Shown: positions 227-58,486 of the stretch, in pieces
Layout: every line of letters starts with the position of its first letter
Position numbering within the stretch: the stretch's first letter is position 1
NCBI GenBank assembly: GCA_038249055.1
Contig: JBBRWS010000002.1
Span: forward strand, 78,118-142,117
Direction of reading: 5' to 3'
From: Minisyncoccia bacterium
GTDB taxonomy: Bacteria; Patescibacteriota; Minisyncoccia; Phycocordibacterales; UBA9973
DNA: 64,000 nt
Translations under genes and position numbers: made by a program
The notes under the pieces: generated by a model
Told to the model about the DNA's origin: nothing
Databases searched by the model: none
Seen by the model: the letters and a program-made list of their open reading frames with translations, nothing else

Positions 227-349
227 ATGCTCCCGTTAGAAGCCGCGGTCATGATATCTAATTGCGGGGTGTAAAAAAATATTATTTAAATTAATTATGC
301 AGGTTGGTTTCATTATAGAATTGACCACGACCTGCTTCTAACGGGATGC
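227..349 (+). repeat. Start-codon-overlapping inverted-repeat leader element, copy 1
   Basis: Left arm tCCCGTTAGAAGC (231-243) is perfectly complementary over 13 bp to right arm GCTTCTAACGGGa (334-346). Direct repeat ATGC at 227-230 and 346-349. Right-arm ATG 346-348 is the gatC start codon. Same architecture recurs at 43583-43712 and 57799-57924. Confidence 0.6.
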
Positions 350-3485: not shown

Positions 3486-3507
3486 CTTTCAAGTCCCTTC
3501 GACTGCC
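3486..3507 (+). repeat. Copy of tRNA-Asp 3' end (T-stem 3' strand plus acceptor: CTTTCAAGTCCCTTCGACTGCC), inverted relative to the gene
   Basis: 20/22 identical to the 3' terminal 22 nt of the tRNA-Asp sense sequence. Forms a 19-bp inverted repeat with 3583-3604 across a 75-nt spacer containing two hairpins. Confidence 0.6.
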
Positions 3508-3545
3508 ATTAAAAACAACTAATGTTGCTTTTAATGGCAAATAAA

Positions 3546-3573
3546 TAAAAGCCCCTATTAAAAGGGGCTTTTA
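3546..3573. terminator. Bidirectional rho-independent terminator hairpin (AAAAGCCCCTATTAAAAGGGGCTTTT)
   Basis: Perfect 9-bp GC-containing stem with A/T runs on both sides. Sits just 3' of tRNA-Asp. Confidence 0.6.
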
Positions 3574-3581
3574 TTTATTTG

Positions 3582-3655
3582 CGCAGTCGAAGGGACTTGA
3601 ACCCTCAACCTCCCACGTGACAGGCGGGTGCTCTAACCAGTTGAGCTACAACTGC
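3582..3655 (-). tRNA. tRNA-Asp (anticodon GTC)
   Basis: Minus-strand cloverleaf GCAGTTG/TAGCTCAACTGGTTAGAGCA/CCCGCCTGTCACGTGGG/…GGTTCAAGTCC/CTTCGACTGC+G. 7-bp acceptor with one G-U, TTCAAGT T-loop, anticodon loop CT-GTC-AC. CCA not encoded. Confidence 0.85.
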
Positions 3656-42913: not shown

Positions 42914-43546
42914 ATGAAGCATGTTATACTTAGTCATATGAAAAAAATTCAAAATAATTTAAAAAAAGATAAAAATATTTTATATACTGGTTTTGGTGAT
43001 ACTGGCATGACTACTCTTTTTGATTGTAAACAAGGTAAAATTTCTAAGAGCGCCATTCTTATCGAGGCCCTCGGTTCGGTAGATGAGCTCAATGCGTATT
43101 TAGGAATAATCAAAGTATATTCAGATATTGATAAAATTGTTTTAAAAATAGGAACTAAAAAAATATTGTTTAGTAAAATTATTGAAGATATTCAACAAAA
43201 TTTATTTATAATTCAGGCAGAACTTGGAGGATCTAAAATGTTTATCGGCAAAAAAGAATTAACTAAAATTGAAAATATAATAAATAAAGTAGGGGAGGTC
43301 CTTCCTCCTATTACATCATTTACTATTTCGGGGGGGAGTATTATTAGCTCTGGTTTAGATTTTGCTCGTACACTTGCCCGTAAGTCAGAAAGAAGAATTA
43401 TATCAACAAACGAAGAAGGGATAAGAATTATTAAACCAAATACAATTTCTTATATGAATAGACTTTCTAGTGTTCTTTTTGCGATGTCACGTTATTCTAA
43501 TCATATTTTTTCTATTCCAGAAAATCATCCGGATTATAATAAATAA
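42914..43546 (+). CDS. PduO-type ATP:cob(I)alamin adenosyltransferase family protein
   Basis: …ILYTGFGDTGMTTLFDCKQGKISKSAILIEALGSVDELNAYLG… (YTxxGDxGxTSL…DELN) signature. Start at MKHV or MKKIQ (42938). The track start at 42800 is unlikely. Confidence 0.75.
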   Translation: MKHVILSHMKKIQNNLKKDKNILYTGFGDTGMTTLFDCKQGKISKSAILIEALGSVDELNAYLGIIKVYSDIDKIVLKIGTKKILFSKIIEDIQQNLFIIQAELGGSKMFIGKKELTKIENIINKVGEVLPPITSFTISGGSIISSGLDFARTLARKSERRIISTNEEGIRIIKPNTISYMNRLSSVLFAMSRYSNHIFSIPENHPDYNK

Positions 43547-43582
43547 CTCCAAATAAACTATAAAATATAGTATAATATCGAT

Positions 43583-43712
43583 ATGGATCCCGTTAGAGAT
43601 GTGTTTGTTGTATTTTATGGGATACTTAGAAATATTTATAAGGTTTGTATTATTAACTCTAATTAATAAGATACGTCCCACCTAAAGAGGGACTATCTCT
43701 AACGGGATGGAT
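43583..43712 (+). repeat. Start-codon-overlapping inverted-repeat leader element, copy 2
   Basis: Arms ATCCCGTTAGAGAT (43587-43600) and ATCTCTAACGGGAT (43695-43708) form a perfect 14-bp IR. Direct repeat ATGGAT at 43583-43588 and 43707-43712. Internal hairpin GTCCCACCTAAAGAGGGAC. TATAAT at 43571-43576 puts a likely TSS at the left arm. Right-arm ATG is the CPBP start. Confidence 0.6.
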
Positions 43713-44321
43713 TCCATAAAACACGAAAGAGAAATTGTCTGGTTACAAATATTATATTTATATTTGATTCCGATTCTCCTTCTTTATTATAGAGTAATCT
43801 CTAGTAATTTTCGTATTTTAATGCTACTACTCGTTACTATTTTAATATATGGAATTACTCGTTATGAAAAATGGAATAATCAAGATTTTGGAATTCAAAA
43901 AGATTGGAAAAAATATTTTTGGCAATATTTAATTTTTACCATCGTAGGAGTTATTTTTCTTTTTGTAATAGAAGAGTTTGAGGTTGGAAAACCATTTTTA
44001 AATTGGTGGAAAAATGCTAAATTTTTGCTTTTATTTATTCCACTTAGTGTTATTCAAGAATTATTATTTCGCGGAATATTAATGAATATGTTTCGACGCG
44101 TTTTTACGAGTCCTATTTTTATAATTGTTTTAAATGCCTGCATCTTTGCTTTAATGCATGTTATTTATCTTAATTCAGCTTTTGTTATTCCAGTGACTTT
44201 TATTGCAGGTATTGGTTTTGCTTGGATGTATTATAAATATGAAAATTTAATTTTAATATCGATTTCTCACACAATCCTTAATTTTGTTGCAATGATATTT
44301 GGGTTTTTTATTTTAAGGTAA
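43707..44321 (+). CDS. CPBP-family intramembrane metalloprotease (CAAX protease / Abi-like)
   Basis: Motif 1 EELLFRGILMN and motif 2 …FALMHV… within a polytopic membrane protein. Confidence 0.75.
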   Translation: MDSIKHEREIVWLQILYLYLIPILLLYYRVISSNFRILMLLLVTILIYGITRYEKWNNQDFGIQKDWKKYFWQYLIFTIVGVIFLFVIEEFEVGKPFLNWWKNAKFLLLFIPLSVIQELLFRGILMNMFRRVFTSPIFIIVLNACIFALMHVIYLNSAFVIPVTFIAGIGFAWMYYKYENLILISISHTILNFVAMIFGFFILR

Positions 44322-44703: not shown

Positions 44704-45210
44704 TTAAGCGGATTTTTTATTATATATTACAAAGTTACAATCATATTTATTTTTGTCATCTTTTTCATGTTTATCTTCAGACGATTTATTCCACTTAGTC
44801 ATATCAATAATAGGGAAGAAAGTATCGGCGTCTTGAAATGAGGCATTAACATGGGTTATGTATAATCTATCTGCTTTATCAATAAATAATTTATATATTT
44901 GTCCTCCCCCTATTATAAAAGCTTCCTCAGTTTCTCCCATTGTTTCCTTTAATAAAGTATCGAGTTCTTCTAGCGAATAAACGACTTCAATATTTTCTCC
45001 AATAAAATTTTTATCTAAAGTAAGTATTATATTTCTTCTGTTGGGAAGAGGACGACCAATAGACTCAAAAGTTTTCTGCCCCATTATCACTGGATGTCCT
45101 GTGGTTGTTTCTTTAAAGTGTTTCATATCTATGGGTAAATCCCATAGTAATTCATTCTTCCTTCCTATTTCATTATTATTTGCTACTGCTGAAATTATAG
45201 ATAAAATCAT
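44704..45210 (-). CDS. folA: Dihydrofolate reductase
   Basis: MILSIISAVANNNEIGRKNELLWDLPIDMKHFKETTTGHPVIMGQKTFESIGRPLPNRRNIILT aligns residue-for-residue with the DHFR N-terminal half. Confidence 0.85.
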   Translation of the reverse strand: MILSIISAVANNNEIGRKNELLWDLPIDMKHFKETTTGHPVIMGQKTFESIGRPLPNRRNIILTLDKNFIGENIEVVYSLEELDTLLKETMGETEEAFIIGGGQIYKLFIDKADRLYITHVNASFQDADTFFPIIDMTKWNKSSEDKHEKDDKNKYDCNFVIYNKKSA

Positions 45211-45213
45211 TTT

Positions 45214-46062
45214 TTATTTTACTATATCAAGTCCTGGTATAGCTTCACTAGGTTTATAAAATGGGGCAAAAGATTGATATATTTCATCTACTATTGTTTC
45301 ATCTTTTGCAAATGAACGGTCGTATATATTTTCTGGTAAGATAGGAAATATATTTGGATGATCGTTTTCTCTTTTTATTAATTCCTGCGCTCCTTCATAA
45401 TGAATATCATAAATATGAGCATTAGAAATACTGTGGGTATATATTCCTGGCTTTACCCCTAGTTTTTGAGCAAGAGCACACATAAGAAGACTAAAACCAA
45501 ATGTATCAAATGGACAACCTAGCATCATGTCATTTGAGCGTATTATGTTATGAAAATGAAGTCGTCCACCAATTATATTTACAGTGAAAGCAAATGGGCA
45601 AGGTACATTTTTTTTATAAGTTGCCTTTAATCCCGTTCCATATAATCCATCGTCTGATGGATCCCAGGTTACTACAACACCTTGTCTTGAATGAGGCTCC
45701 TCAGTAAGATGTTTAACCAATTGATCAAGCTGGTCTCTTCCGAAGTGGTGTCTCCATCTATATCCATAAGCAGAAGTTATTGTCCCATCTTCTTCAGCAA
45801 ACTCATCCCAAATTTTTGTATATTTTCTTAAAAAGTCTGCATTCTTTTCTCCAGTAACAAACCATACTTGTTCAGCAATGGGAGATTTAATTGGATTCTT
45901 ACGTAAAGTTAAAACTGGAAATCCATCTTTTTCAACATCAATTTGGAAAGTAAGACCTGGTAATATTTTTATCTTATGTCCTGTTCTTTCATTCAATTCT
46001 TCTATCCCTTCTTCCATTATTCTTTTTATTAAATTTTTATAGATTGCGTCAAATGTTGTCAT
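45214..46062 (-). CDS. thyA: Thymidylate synthase (ThyA family)
   Basis: …DRTGHKI…FPVLTLRK… N-terminus. Active-site VPCPFAF (catalytic Cys). IRSNDMMLGCPFD region (R-S-x-D). 4 nt upstream of folA on the same strand. Confidence 0.8.
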   Translation of the reverse strand: MTTFDAIYKNLIKRIMEEGIEELNERTGHKIKILPGLTFQIDVEKDGFPVLTLRKNPIKSPIAEQVWFVTGEKNADFLRKYTKIWDEFAEEDGTITSAYGYRWRHHFGRDQLDQLVKHLTEEPHSRQGVVVTWDPSDDGLYGTGLKATYKKNVPCPFAFTVNIIGGRLHFHNIIRSNDMMLGCPFDTFGFSLLMCALAQKLGVKPGIYTHSISNAHIYDIHYEGAQELIKRENDHPNIFPILPENIYDRSFAKDETIVDEIYQSFAPFYKPSEAIPGLDIVK

Positions 46063-51893: not shown

Positions 51894-52095
51894 TTTAAAT
51901 TAATAGTTTAGGTACTTCATTAAATATTAAAATTTTTCAAGTCCTCGGATGAGGGAGGACGAGGGGCCAGACCATTCAAAATTTTATATTTAATTACGTA
52001 CCGATTTAACCAGTAGTTGATTCAATTAATGATTCTGATGAATTGTTTATTGAATAAGATTTTTTATAAATAATTTGTTAAGTTTAATAAAATAT

Positions 52096-55000
52096 ATGGA
52101 CGAAAAAAACCCAAAAACTAATAGTGCACTTAGAGAAGAAGAAGTTTTAAAATTTTGGAAAGAGAATGAAATTTTTAAAAAGAGTTTAGAAAAAGATTCT
52201 CCTAAGGGTGAATATGTTTTTTATGAAGGGCCACCTACTGCAAATGGGAAACCAGGAATCCATCATTTAGAAGCTCGTGCTTTTAAGGATGCTATCCCTC
52301 GATATAAAACAATGAAAGGATATCATGTTGGAAGAAAAGGTGGGTGGGATACTCACGGTCTTCCTGTGGAACTTCAGGTAGAAAAAAAATTAGGTCTATC
52401 TTCAAAAAAAGCTATTGAAGAATATGGGGTTGCTAAATTTAATAAAGAATGTAAAGAAAGTGTGTGGGAATATACTGATCTATGGGAAAAATTTACCGAG
52501 AGAATTGGTTTTTGGGTTGATCAAGAAAATCCATACGTTACATATCATAATGATTACATTGAATCAGTTTGGAATGTTATTAAAGAAGCAAATAAACAAG
52601 ATTTACTTTATAAGGATTATAAAGTTGTACCTTGGTGTCCTAGGTGTGGAACAGGTCTTTCTTCTCACGAGCTTGCTCAAGGGTATGTTGATGTAAAAGA
52701 TTTATCAATATATGCAAAGTTTAAAATCAAAGGGAAAGAAAATACTTATATTCTTGCCTGGACCACAACTCCATGGACTCTTCCAGGAAATGTAGCCTTG
52801 GCTGTCGGTGAGAAAATAATGTATGTAAAAGTGAAAGCGGGGGAAGATTTTTATATTTTAGCTGAATCTCGATATCCATTTGTATCCCAGGAGTATCAAA
52901 TTGTTGAGAAAATAAAAGGTGAAGATTTAATTGGTTTGCAATATGAACCACTTTATCCTTATCTTGAAAATATAATTTCTGATTCTGAAAAACCTAAACT
53001 AGAAAAAGCTTATAAGATTTATAATGCAGATTTTGTGACAACTGAAGATGGAACAGGAGTGGTGCACACAGCTGTAATGTACGGGCAAGATGATTTTGAA
53101 TTAGGAAATAAAATTGGTTTACCAAAACATCATTTGGTAGGTCTTGATGGAAAGTTCTTAGCGGGGACGGGATTTTTAGAAGGACGATTTGTTAGAGACG
53201 AAGAAGTGGCTGTAGATATTATAAAGGATTTGGCTCATAGAGGTTTTCTCTTTAAAAAAGAAAAATATGAACACTCCTATCCACATTGTTGGCGTTGTAA
53301 AACAGCACTTATATATTATGCTCGGGATTCTTGGTACATAAGGATGTCTTCACTTAGGGATAAACTTATTAAAGAAAATGAAAATATAAATTGGGAACCT
53401 TCTCATATAAAAGAAGGACGTTTTGGTGAATGGTTAAAAGATATTAAAGATTGGGCAATTTCTAGAGAAAGATATTGGGGAACTCCACTTCCTGTTTGGT
53501 CCTGTTTGGAATGTAAAAAAATGGAGGTACTTGGAAGTATTGAAGATATTAAATCTAAAACCAAAAAATCTGGAAATAAATACTTTATAATGAGACACGG
53601 GGAAACTGAATGTAATATAAGAGGGGAAGTAAGTGATACTGTAAATAATGATGATAAATTAACTAAACTTGGCCGTGAGCAAGTTTTAAACTCTGTAAAA
53701 GGATTAAAGAAAAAAAATATTGACCTAATAATCATTTCTCCTTTTGTGAGAACAAAAGAAACTGTCGATATCTTAGCTTTAGAGATGGATTTTAACAAAG
53801 ACAATATTTTATTTGATGATAGATTGCATGAAATGTCTGTACCTATGTATGAAGGTAAAAAATGGGAAGATTATCATAATGATTATCCAAAATCAGTAGA
53901 AAACTTTTATAAAGCACCAGAAGGAAATGAATCATATGAAGATGTGAGAAGAAGGTCCATGAGTTTTTTATATGATATTGAAAAAAAATATTCAGGAAAA
54001 AATATTTTGATTATTACTCATGGAAGTCCTGTTTGGTTAATGTTTTCTGAGGTTAATGGTTTAAGTACTTCCGAATCTCTAGGGATAATAGCCAGAGATA
54101 ATAGTTATTGCTATTTAAATAATGGAGAATTTATAGAGCTTCCTTTTGTACCAGTACCTCATGATGAAAATTATAAGGTTGATTTACACAAACCATATAT
54201 TGATGAAATAAATCTAACTTGTGAATGTGGAGGAGAATTATCTAGAGCAAAGGAAGTAATGGATGTCTGGCTTGATTCTGGCTCAATGCCTTTTGCACAG
54301 AGTCATTATCCTTTTGAAAAAAAGGAAATACAATATCCCGCCGATTTTATAAGTGAAGCTGTCGATCAAACCCGTGGTTGGTTTTACACACTTCATGCAG
54401 TCGGAGTTATTATGGGAAGGGGAAATGCATATAAAAATGTAATTTGTCTTGGTTTATTACTTGATGCAAACGGGAAAAAGATGTCAAAATCTGTGGGAAA
54501 TGTTGTAGATCCATGGGCTATGATGGATAAATATGGAGTAGATACAATTAGACTTTGGATGTATTCAGTGAATCAACCAGGGGAGCCAAAAAACTTTGAT
54601 GAAAAAATTATTTCTGAATTACATAACAAAGTTTTTAATTTGCTGTATAACGTTTTAGCTTTTTACGAATTATATAGAGATGAAAAAGTAGAAAATAGAA
54701 AGGAAAAAGTAGAAAGTCAGAATGTTCTTGATCAATGGATTCTAACTCGTCTTGATGAACTTATAATCATAACTACAATAAATCTAGATGATTATAAGCT
54801 TCTTGAACCTGTTCGTGCCATTCGTGAATTTATAGACGATCTTTCTACTTGGTATTTACGACGCTCTCGTGAAAGAATAAAAGAAGGAGATGTTGAAGCA
54901 AAAATTACCTTATATAATGTTTTTAAAATCCTATCTAAATTAATGGCACCTTTTGCTCCATTTACGGCTGAAGATATTTGGCAAAAATTAAGAAATGAAG

Positions 55001-55548
55001 ACGATGAAGAGAGTGTACATTTATCAGGATGGCCTAAAAATGAAGAAAGTAAAAAAGAGGAAATAGAAAAAATTATTAAAGAAATGAGAGAGGTTAGAGA
55101 TGTCGTAACTCTTGGTTTGCAGGCAAGACAAAAAGTTGGTATTCCAGTACGACAACCACTTGGTGAATTACGAATTACAAACTATGATTTAAAAGAAGAA
55201 TATTTAGAAATTATTAAAGATGAGCTAAATGTTAAGATGGTAAAGTTTTTAGAAGATGTTGAACAAAAAATAGAATTGGATACATATATAACAGAGGATT
55301 TAAAAAATGAAGGTCAGTGTCGTGAACTATTAAGAAGTATTCAAGATATAAGAAAGAAAAATGGATTAAATCCAAATGATGTTATAATTCTTAGTATTGA
55401 TACGAATGTGTCTGGACAAGAATTAATAAATAAATTTAAAAAGGAAATAATGAAAGCAGTTAGTGCAAAAGAAATACAAATTGAAGAAAATAATGGAATA
55501 GAGATAAAAATTGATGAATTTGTATTTAAGGTTGTAGTAGAAAAATAA
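52096..55548 (+). CDS. ileS: Isoleucine--tRNA ligase with an inserted histidine-phosphatase (PGAM/SixA-like) domain
   Basis: HIGH-type motif PPTANGKPGIHHLE, editing-domain TTPWTLPGN, WAISRERYWGTPLPVW, KMSKS. Between WGTPLPVW and DVWLDSGS (about 60 aa in E. coli IleS) sits a roughly 200-aa insert carrying FIMRHGETECN and ILIITHGSPVWLM (approx. nt 53560-54150). Start at ATG 52096 (the track TTG at 52075). Confidence 0.9.
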   Translation: MDEKNPKTNSALREEEVLKFWKENEIFKKSLEKDSPKGEYVFYEGPPTANGKPGIHHLEARAFKDAIPRYKTMKGYHVGRKGGWDTHGLPVELQVEKKLGLSSKKAIEEYGVAKFNKECKESVWEYTDLWEKFTERIGFWVDQENPYVTYHNDYIESVWNVIKEANKQDLLYKDYKVVPWCPRCGTGLSSHELAQGYVDVKDLSIYAKFKIKGKENTYILAWTTTPWTLPGNVALAVGEKIMYVKVKAGEDFYILAESRYPFVSQEYQIVEKIKGEDLIGLQYEPLYPYLENIISDSEKPKLEKAYKIYNADFVTTEDGTGVVHTAVMYGQDDFELGNKIGLPKHHLVGLDGKFLAGTGFLEGRFVRDEEVAVDIIKDLAHRGFLFKKEKYEHSYPHCWRCKTALIYYARDSWYIRMSSLRDKLIKENENINWEPSHIKEGRFGEWLKDIKDWAISRERYWGTPLPVWSCLECKKMEVLGSIEDIKSKTKKSGNKYFIMRHGETECNIRGEVSDTVNNDDKLTKLGREQVLNSVKGLKKKNIDLIIISPFVRTKETVDILALEMDFNKDNILFDDRLHEMSVPMYEGKKWEDYHNDYPKSVENFYKAPEGNESYEDVRRRSMSFLYDIEKKYSGKNILIITHGSPVWLMFSEVNGLSTSESLGIIARDNSYCYLNNGEFIELPFVPVPHDENYKVDLHKPYIDEINLTCECGGELSRAKEVMDVWLDSGSMPFAQSHYPFEKKEIQYPADFISEAVDQTRGWFYTLHAVGVIMGRGNAYKNVICLGLLLDANGKKMSKSVGNVVDPWAMMDKYGVDTIRLWMYSVNQPGEPKNFDEKIISELHNKVFNLLYNVLAFYELYRDEKVENRKEKVESQNVLDQWILTRLDELIIITTINLDDYKLLEPVRAIREFIDDLSTWYLRRSRERIKEGDVEAKITLYNVFKILSKLMAPFAPFTAEDIWQKLRNEDDEESVHLSGWPKNEESKKEEIEKIIKEMREVRDVVTLGLQARQKVGIPVRQPLGELRITNYDLKEEYLEIIKDELNVKMVKFLEDVEQKIELDTYITEDLKNEGQCRELLRSIQDIRKKNGLNPNDVIILSIDTNVSGQELINKFKKEIMKAVSAKEIQIEENNGIEIKIDEFVFKVVVEK

Positions 55549-57728: not shown

Positions 57729-57798
57729 TCACGAATAAATAAAACCCTATACTTTTTAGGGTTTTATTTATTTTATCTGAATGTGTTAAAATAGATGC

Positions 57799-57924
57799 AT
57801 GAATCCCGTTAGAAACCGCGGTCACGGTTATAATAGGAAAATTAATAAATCATTAAATTTAATTTAAACAATCTCGCATTTATTTGTAAAAATATTAATC
57901 GCGATCTGTTTCTAACGGGATGAA
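57799..57924 (+). repeat. Start-codon-overlapping inverted-repeat leader element, copy 3
   Basis: Arms ATCCCGTTAGAAAC (57803-57816) and GTTTCTAACGGGAT (57908-57921) form a perfect 14-bp IR. Direct repeat ATGAA at 57799-57803 and 57920-57924. Internal CCGCGGTCA shared with copy 1. TGTGTTAAAAT extended -10 just upstream. Right-arm ATG is the start of the hydrolase gene. Confidence 0.6.
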
Positions 57925-58486
57925 AAAAGTATTTATGATACATGGTTTTAAAGGAGAGCCTAATGGAGGTTGGCGACCTTGGCTTATGGGAGAACTCGCT
58001 CAAAATGAGATTTGGGCTTGTGCTTTACCTATGCCAACACCAGAATTCCCTGTAAAAGATGAATGGGTCAAAAAAATAAGTGAAGAAGTTAAAAGTCCTA
58101 ATGAAGAAATATTTTTGGTTGGACACTCATTGGGAGTGCCTGCAATTTTGCGATATTTAGAAACTTTACCCAAAGGTTCAAAAATTGGAGGATCTATATT
58201 TGTGTCAGGTCCCGTGTTTAAAAAGTTAGAAGGGGGTAATGAATATATAAAGATTTTTTTAAATGAACCTTTTGATTTTGAACATATAAAAAGTGTGTGT
58301 AAAAATTTTACAGTAATACATGGAGACGATGACCCAAATGTTCCAATATCTGATGCCAAATATTTAGCAGAAAATTTATCGAGGAATTTAATTCTAGTAC
58401 CTAACGGAAAACATTTAAATGGTTTAGCTGGAATATATAAATTACCACAAGCATTAGATTCATTATTAAAAATGATTAATACCTAA
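57920..58486 (+). CDS. Alpha/beta serine hydrolase of the YdeN/RBBP9 family
   Basis: MKKVFMIHGFKGEPNGGWRPWL N-terminus and nucleophile elbow VGHSLG. Confidence 0.6.
   Translation: MKKVFMIHGFKGEPNGGWRPWLMGELAQNEIWACALPMPTPEFPVKDEWVKKISEEVKSPNEEIFLVGHSLGVPAILRYLETLPKGSKIGGSIFVSGPVFKKLEGGNEYIKIFLNEPFDFEHIKSVCKNFTVIHGDDDPNVPISDAKYLAENLSRNLILVPNGKHLNGLAGIYKLPQALDSLLKMINT

Follow-up and report, generated by a model that had tools for sequence, protein, structure and literature searches.

Our comparisons suggest that the feature at positions 43583-43712, ahead of a CPBP gene in a 64-kb stretch of DNA (the window, which denotes that whole stretch), is one copy of a non-autonomous, hairpin-forming, MITE-like mobile DNA element of 100-130 bp that has no ORF and is widespread in Patescibacteria (CPR), a reading to which we assign a probability of roughly 85%. 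The insertion at the CPBP gene is in itself an ordinary consequence of transposon insertion. The unusual part is the behaviour of the family as a whole, that is, its nucleotide-precise residence on start codons, the regeneration of the ATG, the tolerance of insertions at essential genes and a superphylum-wide distribution.

The anatomy of the locus is given in Table 1. An earlier note on this DNA had described a perfect 14-bp stem over the CPBP start codon, a TATAAT lying 6 nt ahead of the left ATG, and a hairpin before the right arm, and all of these are present. ATCCCGTTAGAGAT and ATCTCTAACGGGAT, the two arms, pair without a mismatch over 14 bp, and the right arm runs two bases into the CPBP ATG (43707). 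The identification of the gene as a CPBP protease also holds, since PF02517 was found in its product; of its 376 homologues, most of those listed are likewise 204 aa long with PF02517, which indicates that the right ATG is the true, conserved start. The note had further reported a 6-bp direct repeat ATGGAT, and this sequence does occur at 43583-43588 and again at 43707-43712, but only TGGA or ATGGA is derived from the target, and the element itself contributes T 43588 and the A of the right ATG, which form its complementary termini. The left ATG (43583-43585), judged by the unoccupied sites described below, is the putative original leaderless start codon, now turned into a 5'-terminal decoy AUG. 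It opens a 27-codon ORF (43583-43666), the sole ORF of the CPBP element, which arises by read-through from the old ATG and whose peptide is not kept in the frame-shifted copy 1. The three nucleotides that follow the left-arm core TCCCGTTAGA (GAT at the CPBP locus) differ among the window copies. By inspection, the internal motif TGGGAT seems to recur widely in the family, at a distance of about 25-35 nt from the left arm.

Table 1. Positions in the window of the three element copies and of the features at the CPBP locus.
Feature	Position	Strand	Remarks
Copy 1	231..346	.	At start codon of gatC-like gene; TATTCT (215-220), N6, ATG (227)
Copy 2, inserted element, 120 bp, non-coding, termini T...A	43588..43707	.	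At CPBP start codon; defined by empty/filled comparison and about 280 family members; folds as hairpin
Copy 3	57804..57920	.	At start codon of serine-hydrolase gene 57920-58486; TAAAAT (57787-57792), N6, ATG (57799); target duplication TGAA
-10 hexamer TATAAT, pre-existing host promoter	43571..43576	+	6-nt spacer 43577-43582; kept in six element-free orthologues
Left target copy ATGGA	43583..43587	+	Minimal target duplication TGGA 43584-43587; empty sites have TATAAT-N6-ATGGAT once only
Left arm ATCCCGTTAGAGAT	43587..43600	+	Core TCCCGTTAGA common to all three window copies
Internal TGGGAT motif	43618..43623	+	Resembles right terminus ACGGGAT
Subterminal hairpin GTCCC-ACCTAAAGA-GGGAC	43675..43693	+	9-nt loop; 1 nt from 12-nt stem
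Right arm ATCTCTAACGGGAT	43695..43708	+	A 43707 closes the element and opens the regenerated start codon
Right target-duplication copy TGGA	43708..43711	+	
CPBP/CAAX-type intramembrane protease gene, 204 aa	43707..44321	+	PF02517

Evidence for insertion comes from orthologous sites that are empty. CPBP orthologues were retrieved with their flanks from eight lineages including the window, and six of the eight lack the element. These six (L241, L245, L246, L247, L248 and L249), whose CPBP ORFs share 73-83% nucleotide identity with that of the window, read atagTATAAT-N6-ATGGAT, and in L245 the entire intergenic space is 22 bp. The window counterpart reads TATAAT-N6-ATGGAT[CCCG...CGGG]ATGGAT, so that ATGGAT stands once at the empty CPBP site and twice at the filled one. 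The conservation of this layout in all six lineages is also in keeping with the earlier proposal that the -10 hexamer places the start of the transcript at the left ATG. The remaining lineage, L242-L244, carries a decayed copy of the element in which the left ATG is now GCG and, in L242, the arms ATCCAGTTAGAGAT and ATCGCGAACAGGGAT no longer pair, with zero compensatory changes. Since the CPBP gene of L242 is 94% identical at the nucleotide level to those of the empty L246 and L247 but only 82% to that of the window, the element must have been gained or precisely lost recently. The interiors of the window and L242 elements share 78% identity, compared with 70% to a copy from an unrelated site; the two may go back to a single ancient insertion or to two independent ones. 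Copy 3 in the window provides a second case, in which the relatives L250 and L251 read TTAAAAT-aggtat-ATGAAAAAAG at the empty site, and the filled site of the window reads TTAAAAT-agatgc-ATGAAT[...]ATGAAAAAAG. The empty sites at both loci indicate that the host genes were leaderless (-10, N6, ATG) beforehand, and the comparison of empty with filled sites indicates that the element separated the promoter from the ORF while duplicating the ORF's first bases. Judged by these comparisons, the feature is an insertion with target duplication, and resident copies, as far as the L242 alignment tells, are subject to decay. On a separate matter, the thymidylate synthesis genes beside CPBP differ in close relatives, being DHFR and ThyA in the window (44704-46062), L241 and L245, and a 449-aa ThyX (Thy1) protein in their place in L242.

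We propose that the DNA would be cut between the A and the TG of the start codon and that 4-5 bp of the target would be duplicated on integration. The element's terminal A and the duplicated TG would then form a rebuilt ATG before the intact ORF, with the old start codon left on the other side. At the CPBP locus, the element would have entered a leaderless gene (TATAAT-N6-ATG). The CPBP transcript would now run from the left ATG with a 124-nt leader that carries the 27-codon decoy ORF at its 5' terminus, and the 5' end of this leader would pair with the region of the real start, leaving the real AUG in a predicted stem of 14-18 bp. Expression of the CPBP gene is probably altered by the insertion. 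Mobilisation may be supplied in trans by an enzyme that recognises the single-stranded hairpin form.

The window itself contains three copies of the element (Table 1). The 11-mer ATCCCGTTAGA, with at most one mismatch, is present eight times in the window where 0.73 would be expected, a count that none of the shuffles attained; six of the eight occurrences are the paired arms of the three elements. When arm pairs are sought at up to two mismatches per arm, these three elements are the only ones found, against 0.35 in shuffles. The three copies precede unrelated genes, their interiors are scarcely alignable, and all of them have a -10-like hexamer exactly 6 nt ahead of the left ATG. Copy 1 has one base fewer from the left ATG to the arm (ATG-C-T-CCCG) and a flanking repeat of only ATGC/TGC. 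The same 4-nt duplication class is represented by L016, L031 and L053 among others, which indicates that the length of the duplication varies.

Beyond the window, a scan with the exact pattern of genomes sampled at one per species gave at least 120 loci, and a metagenome scan in which the ATG was not required returned at least 120 further loci, giving a lower bound of about 280 distinct elements over the two scans. The sample was picked by perfect 9-10-nt cores, the 10-bp core being fixed by the search pattern, and old or decayed copies and their positions are therefore under-sampled. The records of the genome scan are mostly Patescibacteria MAGs, including Saccharibacteria, Paceibacterota, Kaiser-, Nomura-, Wolfe- and Yanofskybacteria and others; a minority of the matches are in Omnitrophica, Planctomycetia or other MAGs, for some of which mis-binning may explain the taxonomy. 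Viral contigs scanned with the family pattern gave zero matches. In the searchable literature we came upon neither a start-codon-specific element nor the present sequence family, which is very large in the Patescibacteria (CPR) and apparently undescribed.

The family has the general anatomy [A/G]-TGNN-[T CCCGTTAGA nnn ... nnn TCTAACGGG A]-TGNN. Its members are 100-130 bp long and non-coding, with a conserved core TCCCGTTAGA/TCTAACGGGA plus three stem positions that vary yet remain complementary; they are present in both orientations and their interior is poorly conserved. The target duplication is typically 4-5 bp (TGAA, TGGA or TGAG) and ranges overall from 3 to 6 bp without a fixed length. 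A perfect 5-nt repeat ATGNN flanks 97 of 144 elements, in which NN differs between copies and agrees within a copy, AA being the most common (56%), followed by GA, AG, CG, CA and others. In L008, L032, L045 and L073 the left codon is GTG and the right one is still ATG, which indicates that the A is supplied by the element to complete the start codon. The non-ATG cases have duplications such as TAAA, GTAAA, TTTA, TTAAA or CATG. Two departures from this anatomy were also seen. A subclass (L013, L024, L029, L061, L128, L129, L210 and L235) has a distal flank (A)CTTGT or CCTGT in place of ATGNN-T, usually 7-9 nt downstream of a TATAAT and with no recognisable direct repeat. Variant elements with C...G termini (L104, 3873-4170; L126, 8813-9210) have junctions GGGG-TTCA-CCCC and members of about 268 bp, and they form tandem arrays away from start codons.

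These elements lie almost exclusively at start codons. When the ATG was not required by the scan, 115 of 135 elements were directly followed by ATG or GTG. Counted on both sides, the 135 elements have 116 arm-adjacent ATG or GTG starts, and 107 of them (92%) open a qualifying ORF, defined as one of at least 60 codons or running to the end of the locus. About 10 more elements lie 2-20 nt upstream of a start, several of them just ahead of a Shine-Dalgarno (SD) sequence. With gene calls made by crude ORF heuristics, the window contains 48 ATGRR sites at gene starts, 75 in intergenic DNA and 677 inside ORFs, and a correspondingly crude expectation that requires ATGRR and purges coding insertions would place 39% of the elements at starts, compared with the 92% observed (p about 2e-33). 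Positions +4 and +5 of the targets are A in about 75% of cases against about 42% of other gene starts, and nothing further out differs. Two subfamilies sit on one start codon in L018 and two copies do so in L090, an arrangement that we read as independent double insertions on one start codon. Judged by these counts, the family is specific for start codons. Targeting of transcription start sites or open complexes, which the N6 -10 hexamers of all three window copies had suggested, was rejected as a general rule: TAnnnT at N6/N7 is found in 28% of element-bearing genes against 19% of background genes, and 88 of 236 insertions (37%) lie within 10 nt downstream of a same-strand upstream ORF, that is, they are operon-internal. 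The genes targeted fall into about 185 Pfam families and include class I and class II aminoacyl-tRNA synthetases, L9, SecG, SecDF, FtsW and MurG. The presence of such essential-type genes (tRNA synthetases, L9, Sec, FtsW, MurG) among the targets suggests that insertion does not abolish expression, and, from the list of occupied genes, insertions at essential and operon-internal genes are evidently tolerated.

A short subfamily (about 98-107 bp; L008, L109, L116, L123, L152 and others) shows that the arms may do more than restore the ATG. Its arms end in ...GGAGGTCTAACGGG-ATG, with a GGAG(G) Shine-Dalgarno sequence 9-11 nt before the rebuilt ATG and an anti-SD-like ACCUCC in the opposite arm, and the other genes of its loci use SD three times more often (24% vs 8%, Fisher p = 4e-5). 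In the window, TAnnnT at N6/N7 precedes 30 of 74 crudely called genes and an SD-like motif is found in only 3, and initiation in the window's genome appears to be mainly leaderless or non-SD. The SD association of the short subfamily suggests that the arms are tuned to supply initiation signals. A more comprehensive reading, which we hold tentatively and at somewhat less than even odds, is that the element actively homes to start codons, that its termini regenerate the ATG, that its arms give initiation signals suited to the host (SD in SD-using hosts, none in leaderless ones) and that the hairpin loops the insertion out of the mRNA, keeping the old 5' end, SD or upstream stop beside the new AUG. 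If this active homing were true, the element would be able to colonise even essential and operon-internal genes across the superphylum and would constitute a portable layer of translational control.

A different account of the same distribution needs selection only. It holds that the element inserts in AT-rich TNNA sites anywhere and that the survivors are those that duplicate a start codon, the terminal A restoring the ORF. The non-ATG duplications TAAA, TTTA, TTAAA and CATG suggest that the intrinsic preference may be T..A, and the enrichment of A at +4/+5 relative to other gene starts fits this account as well, as does the scarcity of neutral sites in compact genomes (the window is 86% coding by a crude count). 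In addition, we know of no DNA-level mechanism that tells a start ATG from other ATGs, so that the share of selection in the pattern may be larger than assumed. However, intergenic ATGRR sites outnumber those at start codons in the window, yet the elements are almost never found there, and insertions after stop codons or between convergent genes, which would be expected to be neutral, are not seen. Neither the double insertions at one start codon nor an orientation bias of 70:11 in the hairpin described below agrees with selection acting alone. On balance we regard this account as unlikely, although it carries some weight, and we argue, short of proof, that the targeting is mechanistic and not purely selective.

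The stem of the element gives some indication of how it is recognised. All four base-pair types occur at stem positions 10-12, where 92-96% of the pairs are Watson-Crick against 43-48% expected, and at these variable positions G:T is about as frequent as A:C. Watson-Crick pairing without an excess of G:T indicates that complementarity is kept in the propagating lineage and that the constraint is of a DNA type or intolerant of wobble, and not that of an RNA helix preserved in place. The subterminal hairpin that the earlier note had pointed out in front of the right arm proves to be a feature of the family, present in about a third of the members, copy 2 among them; in 70 elements it adjoins the arm nearer the gene and in 11 the arm farther away, and its stem comes in 42 different forms. 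The same GCGACC-type sequence finds its pairing partner beside the left arm in another subfamily, where the stem is lengthened as a result. The folding z-score is -2.3 for the RNA leader (MFE -38.9 kcal/mol) and -3.8 for the element as single-stranded DNA. We infer that a folded single strand may be the form recognised during mobilisation.

It is also conceivable that the element behaves as an intervening sequence that is neutralised at the level of RNA or translation, either because the hairpin is excised or processed, for example by RNase III cutting in the long stem to leave a near-leaderless mRNA, or because ribosomes bypass it between the two AUGNN. The occurrence of intact copies with a fully paired start codon in essential genes would be accommodated in this way, the base of the stem joins the old and the new AUGNN, which as a duplicated pair resemble matched take-off and landing sites, and the hosts appear to use leaderless or non-SD initiation. 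Nevertheless, Rfam scans of the window and the locus showed no sign of a ribozyme or intron, integration fully accounts for the duplication, both orientations occur and the interior is poorly conserved, and we consider such neutralisation improbable.

The earlier note had considered regulated or phase-variable expression of the CPBP gene through this leader to be plausible. A dedicated cis-regulatory RNA leader evolved for this gene, such as a thermosensor, a riboswitch-like leader or a start-codon-sequestering switch, would fit a predicted transcript from the left ATG whose 5' end pairs with the start-codon region, a -10 at N6 from that ATG and a right-arm hairpin that covaries across the family. 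This interpretation does not survive the comparative data and we now give it very little credence, because the six close orthologues without the element keep the promoter and the start codon, the L242 copy has lost both its stem complementarity and its left ATG without compensation, and the same element precedes hundreds of unrelated genes from about 185 protein families with no excess of G:U over A:C. The decay in L242 likewise argues against a maintained function of the CPBP copy. In Rfam searches only tRNAs reached the gathering score in the window, and a permissive search of 43540-43760, at E up to 10, gave no relevant family. The link to the immunity biology of CPBP proteins that the note implied is judged to be coincidental. 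An invertible DNA switch (inverton), in which a recombinase flips a promoter between short conserved inverted repeats around about 95 bp of AT-rich DNA with TATAAT-like hexamers both ways, is the idea to which we give the least credence of all, as the conserved promoter and its -10 lie outside the repeats, the window has no recombinase domain, the TATAAT-like motifs are unbiased in direction, and target duplication with empty sites points to insertion, not inversion.

Two further candidates were rejected. A coding N-terminal extension is incompatible with the in-frame stops, with element lengths in all three phases and with the frame shift in copy 1. An outward promoter inside the element finds no counterpart in the TATAAT-like hexamers (146 vs 149 by direction), and there is no usable -10 before the right ATG.

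Among known systems, the element most resembles the MITEs, such as Correia/NEMIS of Neisseria and RUP of S. pneumoniae, which are about 100-150 bp long, non-coding and multi-copy, have terminal inverted repeats and a short target duplication, form a long hairpin once transcribed, lie beside genes and can alter their expression. Correia elements are substrates of RNase III. Small and non-coding (120 bp), with perfect terminal arms of 13-14 bp, a target duplication and dispersed copies (3 in 64 kb, hundreds elsewhere) whose orthologous sites are filled or empty, the element qualifies on its sequence features as a MITE in every respect except an identified parent IS. However, known MITEs duplicate TA or targets of fixed length and are scattered in intergenic DNA, and to our knowledge none has been reported on start codons or as rebuilding an ATG with its terminal base. 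The variable stem positions of the present family also covary, which recognition of terminal inverted repeats alone does not need, and a cut-and-paste transposase acting on double-stranded DNA alone would not explain this persisting complementarity. REPINs, or REP sequences with a RAYT (HUH Y1) enzyme, share with the element hairpin-forming doublets about 100 nt long, copy numbers in the tens to hundreds, maintained complementarity and the lack of an own ORF; they are mobilised by a single-copy, host-resident enzyme that probably recognises the single-stranded form. Unlike the present family, REPs have a GTAG-type 5' motif, each half is palindromic, and they are extragenic with no start-codon specificity and no known target duplication. 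The arms of our element, TCCCGTTAGA..., are not individually palindromic. The 'safe-haven' elements, namely Tn7 at attTn7, IS1397/IS110-type elements in REPs, class C group II introns, which insert after terminators, and Ty3, which inserts at Pol III start sites, are similarly gene-sparing, nucleotide-precise and orientation-biased. In contrast to the present family, whose targets have as their sole common feature a start codon with a purine-rich second codon, they read long sequences, structures or protein complexes. Integron attC sites are also imperfect hairpins (57-141 nt), with an outer stem that holds conserved GTT/AAC triplets and a centre that varies; they are recognised as a folded single strand and lie directly upstream of ORFs. 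Their core order, however, is the reverse, RYYYAAC...GTTRRRY against GTTAGA...TCTAAC here on both strands, and the present elements are solitary, with a variable target duplication, no cassette arrays and no integrase. PATEs derived from IS200/IS605 have no terminal inverted repeats, no duplication and a fixed tetra- or pentanucleotide target, whereas our element has terminal inverted repeats and a variable duplicated target.

The search for the mobilising enzyme was negative within its scope. Pfam scans of 50 window ORFs gave no transposase, recombinase or HUH domain in the 64-kb window, and no evident transposase family, judged by first residues, was present among the 25 largest clusters of 1,542 element-flanking ORFs. 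Neither the window nor the element flanks showed a RAYT gene. The window and 1.75 Mb of flanking DNA yielded no autonomous IS sharing the element's ends, and long-range arm pairs in those 1.75 Mb likewise delimited no long element with such ends.

A transposon that selects its target to the nucleotide normally recognises a long sequence, a structure or a landmark protein. A family with the initiation codon as its only common target, repaired by the element's own last base, would represent a new insertion strategy. Patescibacteria are not yet growable alone. The family offers a natural experiment on their translation start, in which hundreds of genes, among them tRNA synthetases and Sec components, have a start codon in a 12-14 bp stem and are evidently functional. 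Working out how they function despite their buried start codons could bring to light ways of RNA processing or initiation that are peculiar to this group. In practical terms, gene callers can be misled by the false upstream ATGs and short ORFs that the elements bring with them, and for CPR metagenomes the elements offer a convenient indicator of recent divergence between strains.

Finally, two further observations were made elsewhere in the window. The ORF of an isoleucyl-type class I tRNA synthetase (52075-55548, 1157 aa) has a histidine-phosphatase (His_Phos_1) domain, residues 504-668, inserted where the catalytic domain divides into its two halves. The tRNA-Asp gene at 3581-3655 (minus strand) has an exact 19-nt copy of its 3' end, inverted and 76 nt away (3488-3506), followed by CCA (to 3509), with a 23-bp terminator-like palindrome (3537-3582) between the gene and the copy; the 19-nt copy could have been left behind by an integration (att) site or have arisen through duplication of a tRNA fragment.
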